22,812 bases of DNA, taken from the UHGV virus genome UHGV-0339689. One strand, 5' to 3'. This DNA is from a virus. The notes under the pieces were generated by a model. It had not been told where the DNA came from. It ran no database searches and saw only the letters and a list, made by a program, of their open reading frames with translations. Of the stretch, positions 2,115 through 19,948 are shown one piece after another (positions within the stretch are counted from its first letter, which is position 1; each line of letters starts with the position of its first letter). A program made the position numbers and the translations under genes.

Positions 2115-2675
2115 TCAGGAAGGAATGGTTATTTCTGTGTGATGTTCGATATCGCCGTCAGGCCCGTTACCTGGATCGAGATAATCAACATCAATCGCCA
2201 GCGTTTGCAGTTCATCCAGACTGTTCAGATCATCCTGCTGGCGGGTATCGTCTTCAGTCAGCTCGCTGATGACCGAAAAATCGAACTGATAAATCAGCTC
2301 ATGACGATTCAGATCCAGCAGCGTGCCGCCGTCATAGGTAATCGGGTTACCGCACGCCTCCGGGTTCCAGCCCAGCAGAGCCTTAAAGAGCATCTGCCGG
2401 ACATCGTCCACCACATCATACGAGGCAAACTGACCGCGCTCATCACGCCCGTTACTCAGTATGACAACCACGGAGAAACCCTCTTTCAGCGCCTGCCAGT
2501 AGTCGGTCTGGCTTTTGTTTTCTCCCGGAGAATCATCACCCGGTACAACATATGCCGCCGGGAGTTTCAGCTTTCCGACCTCCGGCAGATTTTTGAACTG
2601 GGCCGCACCTGCAACCCGGTTTTCAAAATACGGACAGCGGGCACGCAGTGCAGCAATAACAGGCGTCAGTTTCAT
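2115..2675 (-). CDS. Phage virion protein of neck/tail-completion region (Mu gp37/DUF1834-like by position)
   Basis: 186-aa ORF in operon orientation between head-completion genes and sheath; overlapping stop/start with the upstream ORF (2672-3178). Confidence 0.6.
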   Translation of the reverse strand: MKLTPVIAALRARCPYFENRVAGAAQFKNLPEVGKLKLPAAYVVPGDDSPGENKSQTDYWQALKEGFSVVVILSNGRDERGQFASYDVVDDVRQMLFKALLGWNPEACGNPITYDGGTLLDLNRHELIYQFDFSVISELTEDDTRQQDDLNSLDELQTLAIDVDYLDPGNGPDGDIEHHTEITIPS

Positions 2676-3178
2676 CTGTGTCGTCGCTCCGGCTTCAGTG
2701 ATTTACGCAATTCCCGCGCCAGAAAATAGCGTGTCCAGCTGCGGTTCTTTTCAAGCGTTTCCATCATGAAGTTATTACGTGGAGCCAGTCGCCAGCCGCT
2801 GCCACCGGATGCACCACGATGATGGCTGCGACGACGCTTTGCCCCTCGCCTCACGCCATAGAACAAAAAAGCCGGATAAAAATCACCAGTGATACGGCGG
2901 TTTCCCTCTCCATTACGCTGGTTAGGGGCTATACGTGCCATAAAACCAGGGCGATGTTTACTGGCTCTGGGTACCATGTAACCAATCGAACGAGCCAGGC
3001 GTCCGGTCTGATAACCGGGGTTTTCACCCGGTGCCGACCGCGCACGGCGCATCACCAGCCGACGGGCATCACGCATATGACGCTGACCAATCGTGACAAA
3101 CGCCCGCCGGACACGGGCGCGGTTAAAGCGCATCTCCGTGGGCTGCTGAAAATCAACGTGCAAAAAGGAAGTCGCCAT
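2672..3178 (-). CDS. Basic phage morphogenesis protein (HK97 gp10-like / tail completion), start may be internal near 3133
   Basis: 168-aa Arg-rich ORF in operon orientation; overlaps upstream ORF by 26 nt if the first start is used. Confidence 0.5.
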   Translation of the reverse strand: MATSFLHVDFQQPTEMRFNRARVRRAFVTIGQRHMRDARRLVMRRARSAPGENPGYQTGRLARSIGYMVPRASKHRPGFMARIAPNQRNGEGNRRITGDFYPAFLFYGVRRGAKRRRSHHRGASGGSGWRLAPRNNFMMETLEKNRSWTRYFLARELRKSLKPERRHR

Positions 3179-3563
3179 TGCTGCCTCCGTGACTCTGCCT
3201 ACATTCGCCCAGCTCCGTACACTCCAGCAGCAGAAAGCGCCGCGCTCCGTTCAGATCGCGCTGACGTTTCACCCGGTACACACTGTCACCGCAGACCACC
3301 TCATAATCAGAGGTGATCCCCCGGCGGTAACGAATGGTGATGTAATGGGTGATGGCGTCTCCGGTCTGCGCGGTTTCCTGCCAGGTGGTGGCACTGGTCT
3401 GGATAACCTTCGCCCATGTACTGAACGCAACCGGGTATTGAGGCTCCACGCCAAAGTTATCTGCGGGCATATCCACCCGCTGGCGGATCAGGACGCGTTT
3501 ATTCAGTTCACCGGGGTCCGGCAGAATGTAGGTTGCGCTGGTCTGTGCCTGGCTAATTTTCAT
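3153..3563 (-). CDS. Head-tail adaptor / head closure protein
   Basis: 136-aa ORF following the gp6-like connector gene with 4-nt overlap; typical size and position. Confidence 0.6.
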   Translation of the reverse strand: MKISQAQTSATYILPDPGELNKRVLIRQRVDMPADNFGVEPQYPVAFSTWAKVIQTSATTWQETAQTGDAITHYITIRYRRGITSDYEVVCGDSVYRVKRQRDLNGARRFLLLECTELGECRQSHGGSNGDFLFAR

Positions 3564-3889
3564 TGCGGAAAGTACCTGTACGGGCTGACAAGCCAGCCAA
3601 AACTCTGCGGCATGTCGAGTTTCTCCACTTCCGTAACCGACGAGCGGTTTTCGTAAAAGTGGCTGATAAGCATCAGCATCCCAAGACGAATATCATCCGG
3701 CAGGTGCAGCCCGTCCGGATCGCTGTCCGGAATGGATTCATCCGGTGCATAGAGCTTCCGGTTCAGATACGTTTCCGTCCGCTTTTGCGCCGCACAGGCC
3801 AGCAGTTGCAGATGGCGGTCATCGGCATCGAAATCCTCATCCAGCCGGAGTTGGGCTTTAATCTCTTCCAGTGTCAGAAGCATTCTCAT
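3560..3889 (-). CDS. Head-tail connector protein (gp6-like)
   Basis: 109-aa acidic ORF MRMLLTLEEIKAQLRLDEDFDADD... with the usual position downstream of the major capsid gene. Confidence 0.7.
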   Translation of the reverse strand: MRMLLTLEEIKAQLRLDEDFDADDRHLQLLACAAQKRTETYLNRKLYAPDESIPDSDPDGLHLPDDIRLGMLMLISHFYENRSSVTEVEKLDMPQSFGWLVSPYRYFPQ

Positions 3890-4085
3890 CCCTCTTTACT
3901 GGCCGTGGCTTTTTCTCTTTTGCCGCTTTACTGCTTTTTGCACTGGTTCCGCGCTCTGCTAACCCGGCCTGAAGTGCAATCTCCTGCACCCGGGCAGGAA
4001 GCGCCCCGTCGTCATACTCACCGGCCCGAATGACCTCAACACGCATACCGTCCGGTGACCATTTAAGATCTTGTTTCAGGATCAT
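3858..4085 (-). CDS. Small hypothetical phage protein (75 aa)
   Basis: ORF starting 50 nt after capsid stop and after a GC hairpin; Lys/Ala-rich C-terminus. Confidence 0.4.
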   Translation of the reverse strand: MILKQDLKWSPDGMRVEVIRAGEYDDGALPARVQEIALQAGLAERGTSAKSSKAAKEKKPRPVKRDENASDTGRD

Positions 4086-4134
4086 GATTCTTCACCCTTC
4101 AGAACAGGGGGCGCGGAACCGCGCCCATGAGCGA

Positions 4135-5340
4135 TTACTTCTCTGCAATCTTCAGCAGTTTGATGGCCTGCGAATCGACCAGCATTCCGCCGGTGCGCTT
4201 GGTGGTATAAAAACCGACAAACGGTTTATTGGTGTACGGGTCACGCAGAATGCGGGTGCCGATACGGTCAACGATGGTGTAACCCCGTTTGAAGTTACCA
4301 AATGCGATGGCTTTCGCATCCGCAGCAATATCCGGCATCTGTTCGTTTTCAGCAATACCGTACCCCAGCAGAGAAGAAGGCTGCCCCAGTTCCAGCCCCG
4401 GACGCCACAGATAGTTACCCTCGTTGTCTTTCAACAGACGAATGGCAAACAGGCTGTTGTTGTTCATCATGAACTTCGCGCCAGTGCGGTGTGCCTTACG
4501 CAGCGTGTAAATCAGTTTGATAATGGCGTCTGCGGTCACCGCAGTCGCTTCGCCGGATACAATATGCTGAAGTTTGCCGAACGCCCGGACCTTATCGGTT
4601 TCATCAGTGGATTCATACGCCAGGAACCCTTTCGGCTTCTTGGTGCCATCGCCTGAGGTAAAGGCAATTTCTTCCTGTTCGGCAAATTCGGTTGCCAGCT
4701 CGCTGTTGATCCATGCTTCCACGTTGAAAAAGGCATCATCCAGCATTTTCTGGGTGGCCTGCGGGTTACCGTAGATTTCCCCCATGAAAGGTTCAATCAG
4801 GCCCAGTTTTGAGGTGGCAGTCTGGGAGCGCGCGTCAGTCTCGCCAACCCATCCGGAAGCCGTGCCGCCCAGATTCACCAGTTTTTTGTAGTCGGAACCA
4901 CCAATGGTGATCACCGTGGCTTCCTGACGCATCACCACTTCATCTTTCAGCAAGGTCAGAATGTTGCGATCCAGCGCTTCCGGCACGGCATAGCCGCCGT
5001 CTTCATCGGTGCCCACCTGTAATGCCTTGCGCTCCAGATCGCGCAGACCATCTTCACGGCCTTTACGCAGGAAGCCCACAAACGCTTCTTTATGCTCGGT
5101 GGTCAGTTTATTTTGCGCACCACCTGCCGGACGTTTCAGCTCAAGCAGCTCTTTTTCAAGATCGCTTTTGAGATTTTCCAGCTCGCTGAGTTTTCCGTTC
5201 AGGGTTTCCACCTGCCCGGCAAGTTTGCCTTTTTCCTGCTCAATCGCCTCAACGCGCTTGTCGTTCTTTGCTTTGAAGTCGTCAAACTTCTGCTGCAGCT
5301 CCTGCGCGACCTGTTCGACATCTTTAATATCAACCGCCAT
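4135..5340 (-). CDS. Major capsid protein, HK97 family
   Basis: 401-aa ORF with long N-terminal coiled-coil delta/scaffold-like domain (QELQQKFDDFKAKNDKRVEAIEQEKGKL...) then capsid domain; SD AGGAGA 6 nt upstream; follows protease gene. Confidence 0.9.
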   Translation of the reverse strand: MAVDIKDVEQVAQELQQKFDDFKAKNDKRVEAIEQEKGKLAGQVETLNGKLSELENLKSDLEKELLELKRPAGGAQNKLTTEHKEAFVGFLRKGREDGLRDLERKALQVGTDEDGGYAVPEALDRNILTLLKDEVVMRQEATVITIGGSDYKKLVNLGGTASGWVGETDARSQTATSKLGLIEPFMGEIYGNPQATQKMLDDAFFNVEAWINSELATEFAEQEEIAFTSGDGTKKPKGFLAYESTDETDKVRAFGKLQHIVSGEATAVTADAIIKLIYTLRKAHRTGAKFMMNNNSLFAIRLLKDNEGNYLWRPGLELGQPSSLLGYGIAENEQMPDIAADAKAIAFGNFKRGYTIVDRIGTRILRDPYTNKPFVGFYTTKRTGGMLVDSQAIKLLKIAEK

Positions 5341-5354
5341 CGTATTTCTCCTGA

Positions 5355-6041
5355 TTAGAAGTTCAGATTTTTCAGTGCATTCAGTGCAGAGCCCACATCC
5401 TCAGCGTCGCGCAGGGACAGTGCGCCATAGCCCCCGGCCATGAATGCTTTGGCCTGGGTACGGGAGAGTCCGACATCACGCAGGACTCTTTCGATTTTTT
5501 TCTGTTCGGGGATTTCCCCGCGGGCCAGTGCGTTCTTGACGTCGCTGATCCGCGCCTCGTCGTTAGACGGGAACGTCACCAGGCTGACTTCCCAGAGGTC
5601 GATTTCTTTCAGCAGAAAGGCTTCTTTGCTCCGGTCGTATTCCCAGTCTTTCAGGACGTACCCAATAGAAAGGCCGGTTAACGAACCGGCCTTCATGTGT
5701 GCATGTGCGCGTTTTGCGAGGGGATCATCATCAATAAGCAACCGTCCCCTGACGTAAAGCCCGACATCGTCTTCCTTCATTTCGGTGTAAACACCGATGG
5801 GTTCATCCATGCGGTGCTGCCAGAGCAGCGCAGGTAACGCTTTTCTGTCACTCCACGCCCGCAGGGAAGCAGCAAATGCCCCGGACATCACCACATCATC
5901 GTGGCTGTCCTTTACACCAAAGACGGAGCCATACCCTTCAAACTCACCGGAGTCACTGACAGATTTCAGACTCAGCGGTACATCAAGACGTTGTTTCGTC
6001 TGCATTGGCGTTATCCTTCTGCTTACCGGCTTTACTGCCAT
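5355..6041 (-). CDS. Prohead protease, HK97 family
   Basis: 228-aa ORF between portal and capsid; conserved gene order; start may be the internal ATG at 6005. Confidence 0.8.
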   Translation of the reverse strand: MAVKPVSRRITPMQTKQRLDVPLSLKSVSDSGEFEGYGSVFGVKDSHDDVVMSGAFAASLRAWSDRKALPALLWQHRMDEPIGVYTEMKEDDVGLYVRGRLLIDDDPLAKRAHAHMKAGSLTGLSIGYVLKDWEYDRSKEAFLLKEIDLWEVSLVTFPSNDEARISDVKNALARGEIPEQKKIERVLRDVGLSRTQAKAFMAGGYGALSLRDAEDVGSALNALKNLNF

Positions 6042-7224
6042 CGGAGGGTTTCGTGGTCATGTTCATCGGTGTGAGATAGACATCACCACCGGGTCGTGGA
6101 TTCATATCTTCCAGGTCGCGGCAGTCATTGGGAGAGTAAATTCCCCAGTTGATCCCGGTGGCGTAGGCTTCAAAACGGGACTTCATATCCCCGCGCAGTA
6201 ACGCCCCGGCGTTAAATTTGGCGTAATAAACGCCCTGCTTACTTTTTCGTACCAGTCCGGTGTTGATCCGCTGTTCGATGCGGGTCAGATACGGCACCAG
6301 TGAATAGTTGATAAATCCCAGCCCCAGCTCTTCGATATTGTTGAAGGTGGCGCGATCGGTGTTCTGCACCATGTGCAACGGCACCCGGAACAGACGACAG
6401 ATTTCTTCAAGCTGAAACTTGCGGGTTTCCAGGAACTGGCTGTCCTCGGCGTTCAGCGCCATCGACTTCCAGTCCAGCCCCATCTCAAGGATCATCGGGC
6501 GGTGAGCATTGCCAAGCCCGGTGTGACGCTCCTCAAAATCTTTCTTCAGGCGCTCATAAGCCTGATCTGACAGCGTCTGCTCTGTACGCAACACACCCGA
6601 CGTCACCGCGCCATTGCTGAACAGTCTGGCCCCGTGCTCTTCGGTCGCTGCCGCCAGCGATATTGCCTCGCGGGCATAGGCGATGGGATTCAGCCCCACC
6701 AGTCCGTCCAGCGTCAGCGTGCGCACATGCCAGATATCCTTCTGGCTCAGTACATCCGTGGAGCCATCCGGGAATGTGACCTGATAGACCGGCTCCCAGC
6801 TACTGTTAAGCTTCGGTACCACACAGCCGGGATCGACGGGCAGCAGTTCAGCCACTTCGCCAAATGCTTTCACTTTGTAGGCGTAAAAGTTTCCCCGCAG
6901 GCACAGACAGGTGACCACCAGCTCCCAGAACTCCTGCGGCGTCATATAGCCATTGGGATGCGTGGAGATCAGCTTATGCAGACGTTCGCCAGCGGCTCTC
7001 TGCTTCAGACTGCCGTTCAGGTGATACAGGTTGCAGGGCAACATCCCGACCGACTCCGCCAGCACCCTGACACAGGAAAAAACCGCCGTCAGTCGCATGG
7101 CCCGCTGGCTGCTGATCTGCTTTCCGGTATAGGTGTCGTAGGACAACCCGATAGCATCCGCCAGCTCTGCTGGCGTGGTCACCGGTGCGTCACTTTTTCG
7201 TTGAAATAATCCCGAAAAGAACAC
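5983..7224 (-). CDS. Portal protein, HK97 family
   Basis: 413-aa ORF downstream of terminase large subunit; size and order typical. Confidence 0.9.
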   Translation of the reverse strand: MFFSGLFQRKSDAPVTTPAELADAIGLSYDTYTGKQISSQRAMRLTAVFSCVRVLAESVGMLPCNLYHLNGSLKQRAAGERLHKLISTHPNGYMTPQEFWELVVTCLCLRGNFYAYKVKAFGEVAELLPVDPGCVVPKLNSSWEPVYQVTFPDGSTDVLSQKDIWHVRTLTLDGLVGLNPIAYAREAISLAAATEEHGARLFSNGAVTSGVLRTEQTLSDQAYERLKKDFEERHTGLGNAHRPMILEMGLDWKSMALNAEDSQFLETRKFQLEEICRLFRVPLHMVQNTDRATFNNIEELGLGFINYSLVPYLTRIEQRINTGLVRKSKQGVYYAKFNAGALLRGDMKSRFEAYATGINWGIYSPNDCRDLEDMNPRPGGDVYLTPMNMTTKPSDGSKAGKQKDNANADETTS

Positions 7225-15632: not shown

Positions 15633-15955
15633 ACTTTCAGACCCCTCTCATGTAACCAGTGGGCTGCACGCAGCCTGGCGTTTTCCTCACCGGCAAGCAG
15701 TGAGCGGATAATCCCGACCGCCTCGCTGTCGTCGTCCTTCACCGCGGTATGAAGCGTTATCCCCCGGGCCACACCACGCTTTATCGTGATGACGCCTTTT
15801 TTCTCCAGTGCGCGAAGATGCTCCACCGCTGCATTCACTGAACGATATCCCAGCATGGTTGCCACCTCCTGATTGGTTGGCGGAAAGCCACGCTCTTTCT
15901 GGTAAGAAATCAGCATATCCAGCACCTGCTGCTGGCATTGAGTTAACGTCGTCAT
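15629..15955 (-). CDS. LexA N-terminal DNA-binding-domain protein (no peptidase domain)
   Basis: 108 aa; QQVLDMLISYQKERGFPPTNQEVATMLGYRSVNAAVEHLRALEKKGVI closely parallels the remembered LexA winged-helix domain. Confidence 0.8.
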   Translation of the reverse strand: MTTLTQCQQQVLDMLISYQKERGFPPTNQEVATMLGYRSVNAAVEHLRALEKKGVITIKRGVARGITLHTAVKDDDSEAVGIIRSLLAGEENARLRAAHWLHERGLKV

Positions 15956-16605
15956 GCCGCCATCTCCCTGACCAGTTTTTCCGCCTGCTGGCGAACCTGC
16001 GCCAGAAAGGCCTCACCACATGCCTCAAGTTCATCGCGCCCGATGTAGCTGATTGCCGGTCCCTTCCAGGTCTTGTCGAAAACAGCAATAGCACCAGCGA
16101 AGAAAGCGCCTGTCGGTACCTGCTTCTCGTCTTTCGGGATAAACCAGACAGGCAGTTCAAAACCAATACGCCCGCGAATAAAAGCAATATGATCTGCATT
16201 TTCCGGCCACCACACTTCGCTGGTGGCAGCTTTGATCAGGAAAACATAGCGCCCGCCTTTATCACGCATGGCACTGGCATGCTTCATGATGTAACGCATG
16301 CCGGTGATGTATTGCCCCTCATGCTGACTGGCGCGGCTGTATGGGGGATTACCAAAGGCAGCACCTTTAAGCTCCGCAAGACGTTCTGACCAGTCATGCG
16401 CCAGCGCGTTGTCTTCCGCCGTGTAATACGCGGCACATTTGGCGTTATCACCGTCAGTGAACAGATCCAGAACAAACGGGCCAAACAGGGTGTTAATTCC
16501 CCAGAAAATGTTGTCCGGCGTGCGCCACTGATCGCCCACTTCCTTCAGTTCATGGGCTGGTTTGTTCCGCAGTTCCACCAGCGCCTGGCAATATTTATTA
16601 CTCAT
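15952..16605 (-). CDS. Phage Dam-type N6-adenine DNA methyltransferase
   Basis: NPPY motif (AAFGNPPYS); track ORF starts at GTG 16638, but the ATG at 16605 shares a TAATG junction with the upstream gene. Confidence 0.8.
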   Translation of the reverse strand: MSNKYCQALVELRNKPAHELKEVGDQWRTPDNIFWGINTLFGPFVLDLFTDGDNAKCAAYYTAEDNALAHDWSERLAELKGAAFGNPPYSRASQHEGQYITGMRYIMKHASAMRDKGGRYVFLIKAATSEVWWPENADHIAFIRGRIGFELPVWFIPKDEKQVPTGAFFAGAIAVFDKTWKGPAISYIGRDELEACGEAFLAQVRQQAEKLVREMAA

Positions 16606-17099
16606 TAAGCCCCCACGTAATTCCCTGACAGATACCACTCTTCACCCGATGCAGCGCGCTTGCTGCTTTTCCGTAAGCACCGCTCACGACGCGCCAGAAA
16701 ATTGTTTCGCTCTTGCTGGGAGTGGCTTTCACGGAATGCCGCCATCCACACCGTTGCAGCACGACGGTATAAGCCCCTGGACTCCAGTTCTTCCGCCTGG
16801 CGGGTCAGGCACAAAATCTCCCGCGGGTCGTTAGTGCCGACATAGAAATTGCGCACAGGTCTGGTTTCACGAACTGGTTGCGGTTCCGCCTCCTGCGCTC
16901 TCTCAGTCAGGCGCGGGAAATGTCTGCGTGTATCCCCTTCACAACGGTGAGCCACACGACCACTCTGACGTAACTTGCTTGCTGACTGCAGAACGCGCTG
17001 CCGTGAGTAACCTGCAAAAGCATCCGCAATGTCTCCGGAAGTACACCCCGGATGGGCTTCAATGTATTTCTGAACTTCATTCAAAAGACTCATGATCAC
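16605..17099 (-). CDS. PerC/ANR-like transcriptional regulator
   Basis: 164 aa; LESRGLYRRAATVWMAA motif as remembered for PerC-family proteins; basic C-terminus. Confidence 0.5.
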   Translation of the reverse strand: MIMSLLNEVQKYIEAHPGCTSGDIADAFAGYSRQRVLQSASKLRQSGRVAHRCEGDTRRHFPRLTERAQEAEPQPVRETRPVRNFYVGTNDPREILCLTRQAEELESRGLYRRAATVWMAAFRESHSQQERNNFLARRERCLRKSSKRAASGEEWYLSGNYVGA

Positions 17100-18037
17100 C
17101 CCCTGAATCCTGCCGGGATCTGGCTGTAGTCCACGTTGTCGTAACTGGCTTTGAAGTACGGGTCTTCGCGTTTTTCGGTGTACGTGCTGACGGACGGCGA
17201 TAAGCGCAGGGAAAGCTCATCCCATTTTTCCCGCAGCTTCGACGGGCTGAGCACGTTACGGCACCAGAACGGATCGCGGCTGACGCGGCTGTACATCTCG
17301 CAGATTTGTTTGTGAGTACGACCATCCTGCACACACATCAGGCGAATTTCGTTTGCCCAGGCTGTCCAGTTCGGTTCTTTGGGACGAACCACCTCGCCGT
17401 CACATTCGGCGGCCTGCTCGTACAGGGCGATGATTTTTTTCCAGAGCCACTGTGCGCAGGTCAAATCATCCTGCGTTCCCCACTGGCGCTTTTTAGGGCT
17501 GAATACAACCGCATCAGGATGGCGAGTTAAAAACTCCTGTTCAGCCGTCTGCGTGTCCGGTTGCGAAGCGTCCGGACGAGAAGTTTTTTTATCTGACGGA
17601 TCATGTTTTGATTTTACTGACGGATCCCCGCCAGATTCTGACGGGTGAAAACCCGCTTTTTTGCCAGATTTCGACGCATCAAATTTTGACGGGTCAGATT
17701 TTGATGCGTCAGATTTTGACGGGTCAGAATCTGACAGTTGAGAAAATGCCGCTGCCTGAAGCTTCGCAACGTTAAGCTGATAAACATTCGACGCATTGCG
17801 GTTACCCTGGCGACGCGCCTTACGCGTTAACCAGCCTTCTGCTTCCAGCCGTGCGATAGCCGTTCTGACGGTACTCATCCCCGCGCCAATCTGACGGGCA
17901 ATGGTTTCAATTGATGGCCAGCACACACCTTCGTCATTACTGAAATCAGCCAGGCGGGCCATAATTGCCACGCTGGATAATTTCATGCCTGACGCAGCGC
18001 AACCATCCCATACATAGCCGGTTAATTTAGTGCTCAT
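17096..18037 (-). CDS. Replication initiator, lambda O-like (N-terminal HTH, internal iteron-encoded repeat linker)
   Basis: 313 aa; N-terminal winged-helix/HTH; central SDxSKSD repeat peptide encoded by the DNA iterons; conserved phage C-terminal domain. Confidence 0.8.
   Translation of the reverse strand: MSTKLTGYVWDGCAASGMKLSSVAIMARLADFSNDEGVCWPSIETIARQIGAGMSTVRTAIARLEAEGWLTRKARRQGNRNASNVYQLNVAKLQAAAFSQLSDSDPSKSDASKSDPSKFDASKSGKKAGFHPSESGGDPSVKSKHDPSDKKTSRPDASQPDTQTAEQEFLTRHPDAVVFSPKKRQWGTQDDLTCAQWLWKKIIALYEQAAECDGEVVRPKEPNWTAWANEIRLMCVQDGRTHKQICEMYSRVSRDPFWCRNVLSPSKLREKWDELSLRLSPSVSTYTEKREDPYFKASYDNVDYSQIPAGFRG
17591..17729. repeat. Origin iterons (core TGACGG(G/A)TC), including three exact-period 15-bp tandem units at 17685-17729
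   Basis: TTTTGACGGGTCAGA / TTTTGATGCGTCAGA / TTTTGACGGGTCAGA in tandem plus four degenerate copies upstream and adjacent T-rich tracts, all inside the O-like gene. Confidence 0.75.
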
Positions 18038-18206
18038 GACCGACCTCTATTTCCCTGAATTTACGACGAAACTGTTCGAGCGGGCTGAAGCACTCATGCT
18101 CATAGTCTTCGCGGAGGTAGATAACCCGTTGTGTTTCCGGCTCCCAACGAATGACTCTGACGGGTACTCCGTAGTGATCTTTGAACCAGCGGTTAACTTG
18201 TCGCAA
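18027..18206 (-). CDS. Alternative-frame small ORF (59 aa, TTG start) overlapping the previous ORF; possible frameshifted C-terminus or separate gene
   Basis: SD AAGGAGA 7 nt upstream of TTG at 18206; translation [59 protein letters not shown]; stop overlaps O-like start codon. Confidence 0.3.
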
Positions 18207-18385
18207 AGGACTGTCTCCTTCTGCCGGTTGAAATCACCCACAGCCCACTCTGCAAAGCTGTGGGTTACAATTTCCCTGTCACCTGGTACATTCACTGCAT
18301 AGCAATATTCCACCTTCGCTTTTCCACCCGGTACAGGAAGCGCAATCAGTTGCGAGCGACGGTAGTGTGTTGTTAAACTGTTCAT
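18047..18385 (-). CDS. Hypothetical protein in cII position (112 aa; C-terminal third may be out of frame)
   Basis: ATGA overlap with upstream YdaT-like gene; N-terminal 60 residues protein-like, C-terminus Ser/Thr-rich and low complexity. Confidence 0.45.
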
Positions 18386-18951
18386 GCGTTAGTTTCTCCA
18401 CAACCAGAAGCAATCGACGCCACGACGCCCGGAGCTGCACACTCGCGGGCGTCATTACTTTCTGAAATGCAAAAAATTTTGTAGACAAGTGCTGCATGCT
18501 CCTGCAGCTTCGAAATTGAGAGATACAGCTCGTCGTTAATTGCTGTCTTCTCATGCGGTTCCACTACACCGTCTTCGATTGCTGAACGAATCTGTTTTGA
18601 ATAACTGCCGATCTGTTCAATGACTTCCAGCAGACGCTGGTTAATATCGGCGTTGTCCACATCCTCGACGTCAGGAAGAGACACAAAGACGCCATTTGCA
18701 GACTGCGCCACAGCATCAGCAATGAAGTGAGTGCCACCAGCACGCTGTAAAACCATTGCCCATCCCAGCGGGAAAATCTGATCGCCATCTGCACGAAGGC
18801 GGTTGAATAAAGCGTTTTCTGTTACATCGAGCCAGTCAGCCGCTTCAGCGTAACCACCCGGCAACGCCGCGATAGTTTTTCTGACAGCTTTCACGTACCA
18901 CTCAGGCTGTTTTTCTATTTTCCAGTGATGCTTACCCACGATTAGCCTCAT
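18382..18951 (-). CDS. YdaT-like (CII-like fold) prophage protein
   Basis: 189 aa immediately downstream of cro-like gene, as in Rac-type immunity regions; assignment from recalled family resemblance. Confidence 0.5.
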
Positions 18952-19273: not shown

Positions 19274-19948
19274 ATGAAAACAATCCATGACATCCGGCGG
19301 TCTAACGCCAGAAAACTGAGAGATGGTGTTGGCGGGAATTCTTCCTTTGCCACTATGATTGATCGCGAGCCAACCCAGACCAGCAGGTTTATGGGAGATG
19401 GTGCTACTAAAAATATCGGTGACAGCATGGCACGACACATCGAAAAATGTTTCGACCTGCCTGTCGGATGGCTCGATCAAGAACACCAGACAACGAACAT
19501 CACAAAAAAACCTGATGTTTCAATCACTAATAAACAAATCACATTAGTCCCTGTCATATCATGGGTACAGGCCGGAGCATGGAAAGAAGTTGGATATTCT
19601 GAGGTTGATTTGAGCACAGCAGAAACGTATCCCTGCCCTGTCCCCTGTGGGGAAATGACTTATATCTTGCGGGTGATAGGTGATTCAATGATTGATGAGT
19701 ACCGCCCGGGAGACATGATTTTTGTCGATCCTGAAGTACCTGCCTGCCACGGTGACGACGTTATTGCATTGATGCACGATACAGGTGAAACCACCTTCAA
19801 AAGGTTGATAGAAGATGGGACACAGCGTTATCTCAAAGCGTTAAACCCAAACTGGCCTGAGCCTTACATTAAGATCAACGGTAATTGCTCTATAATTGGT
19901 ACAGTGATTTTCTCAGGAAAACCAAGAAGATACAAAATCAAAGCCTAA
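19274..19948 (+). CDS. cI: CI-type repressor with S24 (LexA-like) autopeptidase domain
   Basis: 224 aa; Ala-Gly site (VQAGAW), catalytic Ser in GDSM and Lys in TFKRL; divergent from cro. Confidence 0.85.
   Translation: MKTIHDIRRSNARKLRDGVGGNSSFATMIDREPTQTSRFMGDGATKNIGDSMARHIEKCFDLPVGWLDQEHQTTNITKKPDVSITNKQITLVPVISWVQAGAWKEVGYSEVDLSTAETYPCPVPCGEMTYILRVIGDSMIDEYRPGDMIFVDPEVPACHGDDVIALMHDTGETTFKRLIEDGTQRYLKALNPNWPEPYIKINGNCSIIGTVIFSGKPRRYKIKA

Follow-up and report, generated by a model that had tools for sequence, protein, structure and literature searches.

The 3' half of the prophage gene ymfM overlaps a complete DUF4222 gene and is kept free of stops without detectable amino acid constraint

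Results

The window analysed here is the whole stretch of 22,812 nucleotides (nt) of the UHGV virus genome UHGV-0339689, whose minus strand carries, in this order, the cro-like ymfT, ymfL, ymfM and an O-like replication gene. This study concerns ymfM, an open reading frame (ORF) of 112 amino acids (aa), and a 59-aa gene of the family DUF4222 that lies within its 3' half (Table 1). The overlapping frames are two genuine same-strand genes in different frames. Within the overlap only DUF4222 is constrained, the tail of YmfM drifts like an off-frame read-out, and stops are excluded from the ymfM frame via synonymous codon choice in DUF4222.

Several elements of this layout had been picked out by a sequence-only reading of the window, which described a 112-aa frame with a Ser/Thr-rich tail and a second frame of 59 aa with a Shine-Dalgarno (SD) sequence and a TTG at 18206 that ends over the O-like start codon. 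All of these are present. The C-terminal 52 residues of the 112-aa ORF include 17 Ser or Thr, the two ORFs overlap by 160 nt, and the TTG is the first possible start of DUF4222 because a TGA closes its frame upstream. The DUF4222 TAA lies 8 nt past the O-like ATG, giving an 11-nt overlap of the two genes. At its 5' end ymfM overlaps the stop of ymfL in an ATGA (18382-18385). At its 3' end the arrangement of TAG, 9 nt and ATG has the geometry of a coupled pair, with the upstream stop close to the downstream start, and the O-like gene is read in the frame of ymfM. The same reading had assigned the flagged gene to the cII position; the CII-like gene is instead ymfL, one gene upstream, and the flagged gene sits between it and the O-like gene.

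Table 1. Positions of the features at the ymfM locus, numbered from the first letter of the window
Feature	Position	Strand	Remarks
O-like replication initiator gene (HTH_36 / DnaD_N-like)	17096-18037	minus	proposed recipient of translational coupling
DUF4222 gene, 59 aa	18027-18206	minus	TTG 18204-18206, TAA 18027-18029; nested out of frame (-1) in ymfM
ymfM/O-like junction, TAG-AGGTCGGTC-ATG	18035-18049	minus	ymfM stop, 9-nt spacer, O-like ATG 18035-18037
SD of the O-like gene, GAGG	18044-18047	minus	inside the junction spacer region
ymfM, 112-aa ORF	18047-18385	minus	ATG 18383-18385, TAG 18047-18049
ymfM read-through tail	18047-18206	minus	codons 60-112 and TAG; +1 frame of DUF4222; Ser/Thr-rich, predicted disordered
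ymfM N-domain coding part	18207-18385	minus	first 59 codons and two bases of codon 60; outside the DUF4222 overlap
SD of DUF4222, AAGGAG	18215-18220	minus	8 nt upstream of TTG; read from sequence
TGA closing the DUF4222 frame upstream	18234-18236	minus	read from sequence
ymfL, CII-like regulator (Pfam Phage_CP76)	18382-18951	minus	TGA overlaps ymfM ATG
LexA/cI-like repressor	19274-19948	plus	-

The 112-aa ORF is ymfM (b1148) of the Escherichia coli K-12 prophage e14 (99% nucleotide identity, four substitutions), and the gene order of a cI-like gene, cro-like ymfT, ymfL (CP76), ymfM and the replication gene is found as well. YmfM residues 1-112 are matched by phrog_1170 (E = 2e-69), and YmfM also matches phrog_20047, a 63-aa family comprising the N-domain only; Pfam profiles gave no family match for YmfM. 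The 59-aa frame scores 63.7 bits against Pfam DUF4222 (PF13973, cut-off 27), its residues 2-53 aligning to profile positions 3-52 of 53, and corresponds to phrog_1343 and to protein WP_071595713.1 of the Prokaryotic Genome Annotation Pipeline (PGAP). DUF4222 is annotated as a stand-alone protein of 59-70 aa across Enterobacterales. PHROGs lists YmfM, DUF4222 and the 63-aa N-domain-only family, all without a functional label. The region is 100% identical to many E. coli chromosomes and has matches in 2,694 records, and in homologous loci Phg_2220_C replication proteins occupy the position of the O-like gene.

Public annotations of this locus disagree. In the K-12 RefSeq record (NC_000913.3, 1203822-1204160) and in phage SfII only the 339-bp ymfM ORF is annotated. 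In PGAP records (e.g. NZ_CP026399.1, 2128186-2128365) only DUF4222 is, the 175 nt after ymfL are left empty, and the conserved N-domain coding region is unannotated by PGAP in the homologous loci examined. The nested layout explains this systematic conflict.

About 500 homologous loci were gathered from genomes, IMG/VR contigs and metagenomes. A scan of genome contigs gave 6 loci and the first viral and metagenome scans returned near-identical copies only; the diversity of the set came from scans seeded with diverged proteins. Anchoring on DUF4222 resulted in 298 unique sequences, which form 33 clusters (hereafter lineages) more than 12% apart at the nucleotide level. With at least 80% of the query covered, the two-frame layout is found in 1,904 E. 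coli records from 1,900 genomes. A ymfM ORF of 111-117 aa is kept in 204 of 209 unique ymfM regions, where DUF4222 starts at nt 179 behind a GGAG, and YmfM homologues down to 42% identity retain the long frame and share 24 invariant residues. The DUF4222 start codon is at a fixed position in 250 unique sequences (ATG 123, TTG 90, GTG 37), 223 of which have an SD-like motif upstream of it.

Selection differs sharply between the two halves of ymfM, as seen in Nei-Gojobori estimates of the ratio of nonsynonymous to synonymous substitution (dN/dS) from 94 ungapped sequences. In the N-terminal part (nt 3-177), dN/dS is 0.035-0.05 in the ymfM frame versus 2-6 in the off-frames. Within the overlap the DUF4222 frame has a value of 0.04 and the ymfM frame one of 1.9-2.1; as the latter equals the off-frame control (2.1), the YmfM tail has no detectable amino acid constraint. 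The proportion of synonymous differences is 0.067 / 0.149 for the DUF4222 frame of the overlap, no lower than the 0.059 / 0.118 of the N-terminal part. Both frames are open beyond what chance would give, but the combination of amino acid purifying selection in both overlap frames with a lowered synonymous rate is not found in these 94 sequences. DUF4222 has the own start, SD and purifying selection of an independent gene. Of the genuine overlapping gene envisaged in the sequence-only reading, the two real ORFs and the bona fide nested gene therefore stand, and a constrained ymfM tail does not, this part being only kept open. That reading had also proposed aligning both frames to homologues, with conservation of the 112-aa frame through its C-terminus and none of the second frame as the outcome that would speak against it; the opposite is observed.

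The openness of the tail is itself far from random. Across DUF4222, the ymfM (+1) frame is stop-free in 30 of 33 lineages and the +2 frame in none of them (0/33). An exact null over synonymous recodings gives a mean probability of an open frame of 0.095 per lineage (range 0.01-0.28), and in an empirical control the +1 frame is open in 9.9% of the 51-codon windows taken from 85 neighbouring ORFs. When lineages are merged into 12 coarse clades at least 22% apart in nucleotide sequence, at least 9 are open (P ~2e-7 on the clade count). Codon usage in DUF4222 shows how the frame is held open. At the at-risk sites, at which one of the synonymous codons would produce a stop, unsafe codons are absent (0/144), compared to 836 of 2476 (34%) in control genes. 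Val before a codon starting with A is encoded by GTT (32) or GTC (35) and never by GTG or GTA, which make up 53% in the controls, and Leu before A is encoded only by CTT or CTC, where 74% of the control codons are unsafe. Two invariant Val columns are split between GTC (15) and GTT (14) and between GTT (18) and GTC (11); synonymous turnover has therefore occurred, but among safe codons only.

The stop of the ymfM frame arises from a rare DUF4222 codon, ATA (Ile), TTA (Leu) or GTA (Val), situated just before the SD of the replication gene, as in ATA-GAG (120 of 298) and TTA-AAG (69 of 298). This is the sole site with a consistently used unsafe codon, and without this stop YmfM would fuse in frame to the replication protein.

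Relative to the replication ATG, the ymfM-frame stop in the 298 unique sequences lies 12 nt before in 197, 6-9 nt before in about 32 and 8 nt after in 39, and offsets of -12, -9, -6, -7 or +8 account for nearly all lineages. For every DUF4222 stop located 8-83 nt inside the replication gene, the ymfM frame ends at -6, -9 or -12. In the three lineages with a broken +1 frame, DUF4222 itself ends at the replication ATG (-11 or ATGA). One of these three, L390 (IMGVR_UViG_3300009662_000011, DUF4222 at about 2001-2180), is the only lineage in which DUF4222 overlaps both neighbours, its ATG overlapping the stop of the upstream gene and its stop forming an ATGA with the next start. The +1 frame of L390 has four stops and uses GTG-AAC, codons avoided everywhere else, which makes this lineage a natural control for stop avoidance.

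The N-domain behaves as a module. Relatives without DUF4222 encode it alone, as an ORF of 59-78 aa whose stop overlaps the replication ATG (ATGA): 63 aa in Providencia phage PSTRCR_117lys, 59 aa in Hafnia phage yong2, 75 aa in an Atlantibacter locus and 78 aa in an Entomohabitans locus. The read-through form is found in Pantoea phage AH07, where it ends in TAG-CCA-ATG. Three or four diverged N-domain types (including MNSLNRxRPAKQFRCLP and MNSLTVNNRLPQL) all read into DUF4222 in the same frame; type B matches phrog_1170 and type C phrog_20047, both of them families that YmfM matches. In prophages of the Providencia type, an ATGA joins the end of the N-domain gene to the start of a separate +1 ORF of 55-58 aa, and this ORF terminates 7-8 nt ahead of the next gene. 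This separate ORF (e.g. 1987-2175 in locus L357; clusters #3, 21, 23, 24, 26 and 28) has a strongly hydrophobic N-terminus (MKTQIILIGCIWISVVFAFASYV...). The hydrophobicity probably arises incidentally from the T-rich third positions of DUF4222, though the ORF might encode a small membrane peptide.

Structure models agree with the lack of constraint on the tail. DUF4222 is modelled confidently by AlphaFold2, with four strands and a helix forming a small beta-barrel, at a predicted local distance difference test score (pLDDT) of 83.5, and its predicted fold is a Tudor/SH3-like beta-barrel. The AlphaFold model of YmfM reaches a pLDDT of 60-70 in the N-domain and stays below 50 for residues 68-112, so that the tail is predicted to be disordered; the overall pLDDT of 52 is too low for a fold search.

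The surrounding early-right operon (15952-18951; 2562-6258 in locus L001) is chained by stop/start overlaps of 1-4 nt: ymfL/ymfM (the ATGA), O/PerC-like, PerC-like/methylase, methylase/LexA-like and LexA-like/RusA. With the PGAP annotation, this chain breaks only at the unannotated ymfM. Because of the ATGA and the 1-4 nt overlaps, the operon looks translationally chained, with ymfM linking ymfL to the replication gene. The O-like gene itself contains iteron-like direct repeats at 17588-17739, five copies of a unit of ~15/30 nt (CAGATTTTGACGGGT...) with 15-nt spacing, accompanied by two copies of TTTAxCTGACGGATC. The repeats encode a repetitive SDSDPSKSDASKSDPSKFDASKS stretch of the O-like protein and probably constitute the origin of replication, placed inside the initiator gene like that of lambda O.

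Discussion

Judging from the arrangement of the genes, we think it reasonably probable that ymfM combines a conserved N-domain with a read-through part of unconstrained sequence, which would carry ribosomes over the nested DUF4222 as far as the replication gene. Past the N-domain (about 60 aa) the ORF continues for another 52 codons, in the +1 frame of DUF4222, up to a TAG placed 9 nt before the O-like ATG and in the frame of the O-like gene, with a complete DUF4222 gene nested in the extension and started from its own AAGGAG and TTG. The object of selection would then be translation through the tail and not the tail peptide. Ribosomes could be handed from ymfL, at the ATGA, through ymfM and over the nested gene to the replication start. 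Such a relay would make termination-reinitiation coupling possible, keep ribosomes on the mRNA with no untranslated stretch, and maintain the direct link of stop and start that relatives without DUF4222 show. The locus is a well-replicated natural case of an ORF extension maintained by stop-codon avoidance alone, apparently kept for coupling to the replication gene after a small gene came between the two.

A number of points weigh against the relay. Coupling is deduced from geometry only, and the replication gene carries its own SD (GAGG). DUF4222 also ends near the replication ATG (+8 nt in the window) and could therefore itself provide the coupling; the need for a relay in the ymfM frame is unexplained in some lineages, including the P0080 type, in which DUF4222 ends in ATGA. 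No strong RNA structure hides the O start, this region being less stable than shuffled sequence (z = +2.7) with only a weak 7-bp hairpin around the O-like ATG. The Poisson-binomial P of 1e-32 for the open frames, which treats lineages as independent, overstates the significance because the lineages are related. Finally, selection on the composition or length of the tail would be invisible to dN/dS. A variant in which RNA structure masks the O start and is melted by translating ribosomes is not supported, given the same z-score.

Two other explanations call the genes themselves into question. The sequence-only reading had considered a single-base frameshift, that is, a pseudogene or a sequencing error, and a programmed -1 frameshift yielding an N-domain-DUF4222 fusion would be a related possibility; the DUF4222 frame is indeed -1 relative to ymfM, and rare in-frame fusions (P0030, P0052, P0059, P0065) are found in raw assemblies. 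We regard both versions as next to impossible and reject them. The fusions are assembly variants of 1-14 member sequences against thousands of two-frame forms; there are none among the 298 unique DUF4222-anchored sequences, and the two-frame layout is present in the 1,904 E. coli records and in 30 of the 33 lineages, no lineage being fused. Furthermore, no slippery heptamer (X XXY YYZ) is found at the frame junction in 22 lineages. In the e14 type the DUF4222 frame opens 27 nt upstream of its start; in some lineages this distance is just 3-6 nt, a stop thus lying immediately before the start. The 0-frame (ymfM) continues for 53 codons past that point, and DUF4222 is annotated on its own across Enterobacterales. 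Scarcely more credible is the view implied by the PGAP annotation, namely that only DUF4222 is a gene, that the 180 nt upstream are non-coding and that ymfM is a spurious call. It agrees with the empty interval between ymfL and DUF4222 and with the missing Pfam family for YmfM, but it is rejected by the N-terminal dN/dS of about 0.04 (0.035-0.05 over nt 3-177), and the 24 residues that are invariant down to 42% identity, the stand-alone homologues annotated in phages, the ATGA with ymfL and the existence of PHROG families also contradict it.

The remaining two explanations accept both genes and differ from the relay in what keeps the tail open. If the stop-free +1 frame were due to phylogenetic inertia or a by-product of DUF4222 composition, the tail would be a meaningless, unselected run-on. 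The lineages do share ancestry, and with only 4-6 at-risk sites per DUF4222 gene the null probability of an open frame (0.01-0.28) is not tiny. Nevertheless, this is improbable: the at-risk Val and Leu codons have undergone ample synonymous turnover that is confined to GTT/GTC and CTT/CTC, an open frame is found in at least 9 of 12 clades where the null is 0.1, the +2 frame is never open, and L390, which has another coupling layout, carries four stops in the +1 frame. The alternative of true dual coding, in which the whole 112-aa YmfM is functional and the length or composition of a disordered tail matters, for instance as a linker, a degron or a membrane-proximal segment, deserves more weight, although we still judge it unlikely. 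The frame is held open by selection, the total length is nearly constant (111-117 aa), and expression of the full ORF causes filamentation (bioRxiv 10.1101/2020.11.19.390815). However, dN/dS in the tail is about 2, as in the off-frame control, and synonymous diversity in the DUF4222 frame is not lowered. The N-domain occurs alone in phages without DUF4222, and Providencia-type prophages have the tail as an ORF of its own, physically apart from the gene of the N-domain. The length of the tail is simply that of DUF4222, and its pLDDT is below 50.

These findings bear on the phenotype attributed to ymfM, a named K-12 gene with an experimentally assigned role in SOS-induced filamentation that is also used in work on filamentation of uropathogenic E. 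coli. The K-12 ORF, described as the cell division inhibitor YmfM and equated with SfiC, is reported to prevent the Z-ring from forming and to make cells filament when it is expressed (Ansari et al., bioRxiv 10.1101/2020.11.19.390815). The published clones contain either the whole ymfM ORF or a fragment reaching from the 3' end of ymfL through ymfN residue 92, and no truncation or frame-specific mutant is mentioned in the published ymfM work. Within the cloned ymfM there is thus another gene, better conserved and equipped with a ribosome-binding site, since the clone carries DUF4222 codons 1-53, i.e. the entire Pfam domain, together with the SD and the TTG; half of the YmfM protein shows no sequence constraint. 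Because the clones carry both ORFs, the effector of filamentation is ambiguous and could be the YmfM N-domain, the whole of YmfM or DUF4222. We raise only tentatively, as a rather unlikely possibility, that SfiC, the SOS-inducible inhibitor of division that came to be assigned to YmfM after 35 years, is in fact the nested DUF4222 or needs it, with the 3' half of ymfM serving as a selected translation bridge and not coding for protein in the ordinary way. If so, ORF extensions that are held open for the act of translation while their sequence drifts would form a feature class missed by gene finders and by dN/dS screens. Our literature search found no paper linking ymfM with DUF4222 or with an internal ORF, and overprinting by an upstream read-through ORF is not described in the papers found to mention DUF4222. 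While YmfM and DUF4222 are known as entities, their conserved nesting, the drifting but open tail and the resulting ambiguity of SfiC are new.

Comparison with known systems

The ymfM of the K-12 prophage e14 is the same gene as that in the window, with the same 112-aa ORF and the same synteny of ymfL, ymfM and the replication gene. It differs in how it has been described: in the K-12 record and the literature consulted it is a simple 112-aa gene, whereas our analysis shows that a conserved nested gene has its off-frame in the 3' half of ymfM. The DUF4222 of the window resembles other members of Pfam DUF4222 and phrog_1343 in its full-length match, in the family size of 59-70 aa and in its place just upstream of the replication gene. 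What our analysis adds to this family is that in nearly all its members a read-through ORF, coming from the gene upstream, overprints the DUF4222 frame.

Rz/Rz1 of lambda and the lysis genes of phiX174 and MS2 are classical same-strand out-of-frame overlaps, in which both products are functional proteins under selection. The pair described here likewise consists of a small complete gene inside a longer ORF and is conserved across relatives. Unlike pairs of the Rz/Rz1 type, the ymfM frame shows only stop avoidance in the overlap and resembles a translated spacer more than a second coding sequence.

Phage 186 offers two further comparisons. In one part of its genome (1436-2367 in locus L501), the genes after a CP76-type cII are first fil, which encodes an inhibitor of cell division, and then dhr, which encodes an inhibitor of host replication; fil and dhr overlap by 14 nt. 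The likeness to ymfL, ymfM and DUF4222 is one of position only. YmfM has no similarity to Phage_186_Fil (PF10893), with no Pfam hit and an hhalign probability of 0.1, and no match was detected between 186 Dhr and DUF4222. No homology of YmfM to Fil or of DUF4222 to Dhr is thus detected and the positional analogy remains, by which DUF4222 might be a functional analogue of Dhr. The second comparison concerns translation and offers a precedent for the relay: according to the phage 186 record, translation of the replication protein A needs translation to the end of orf84. With such termination-reinitiation coupling in phage early operons the ymfM locus shares an upstream stop that lies at most 12 nt from the replication start, and ATGA overlaps along the whole operon. 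The ymfM locus differs from orf84-A in that the coupling suggested by its geometry would be carried by an ORF that crosses an entire nested gene.

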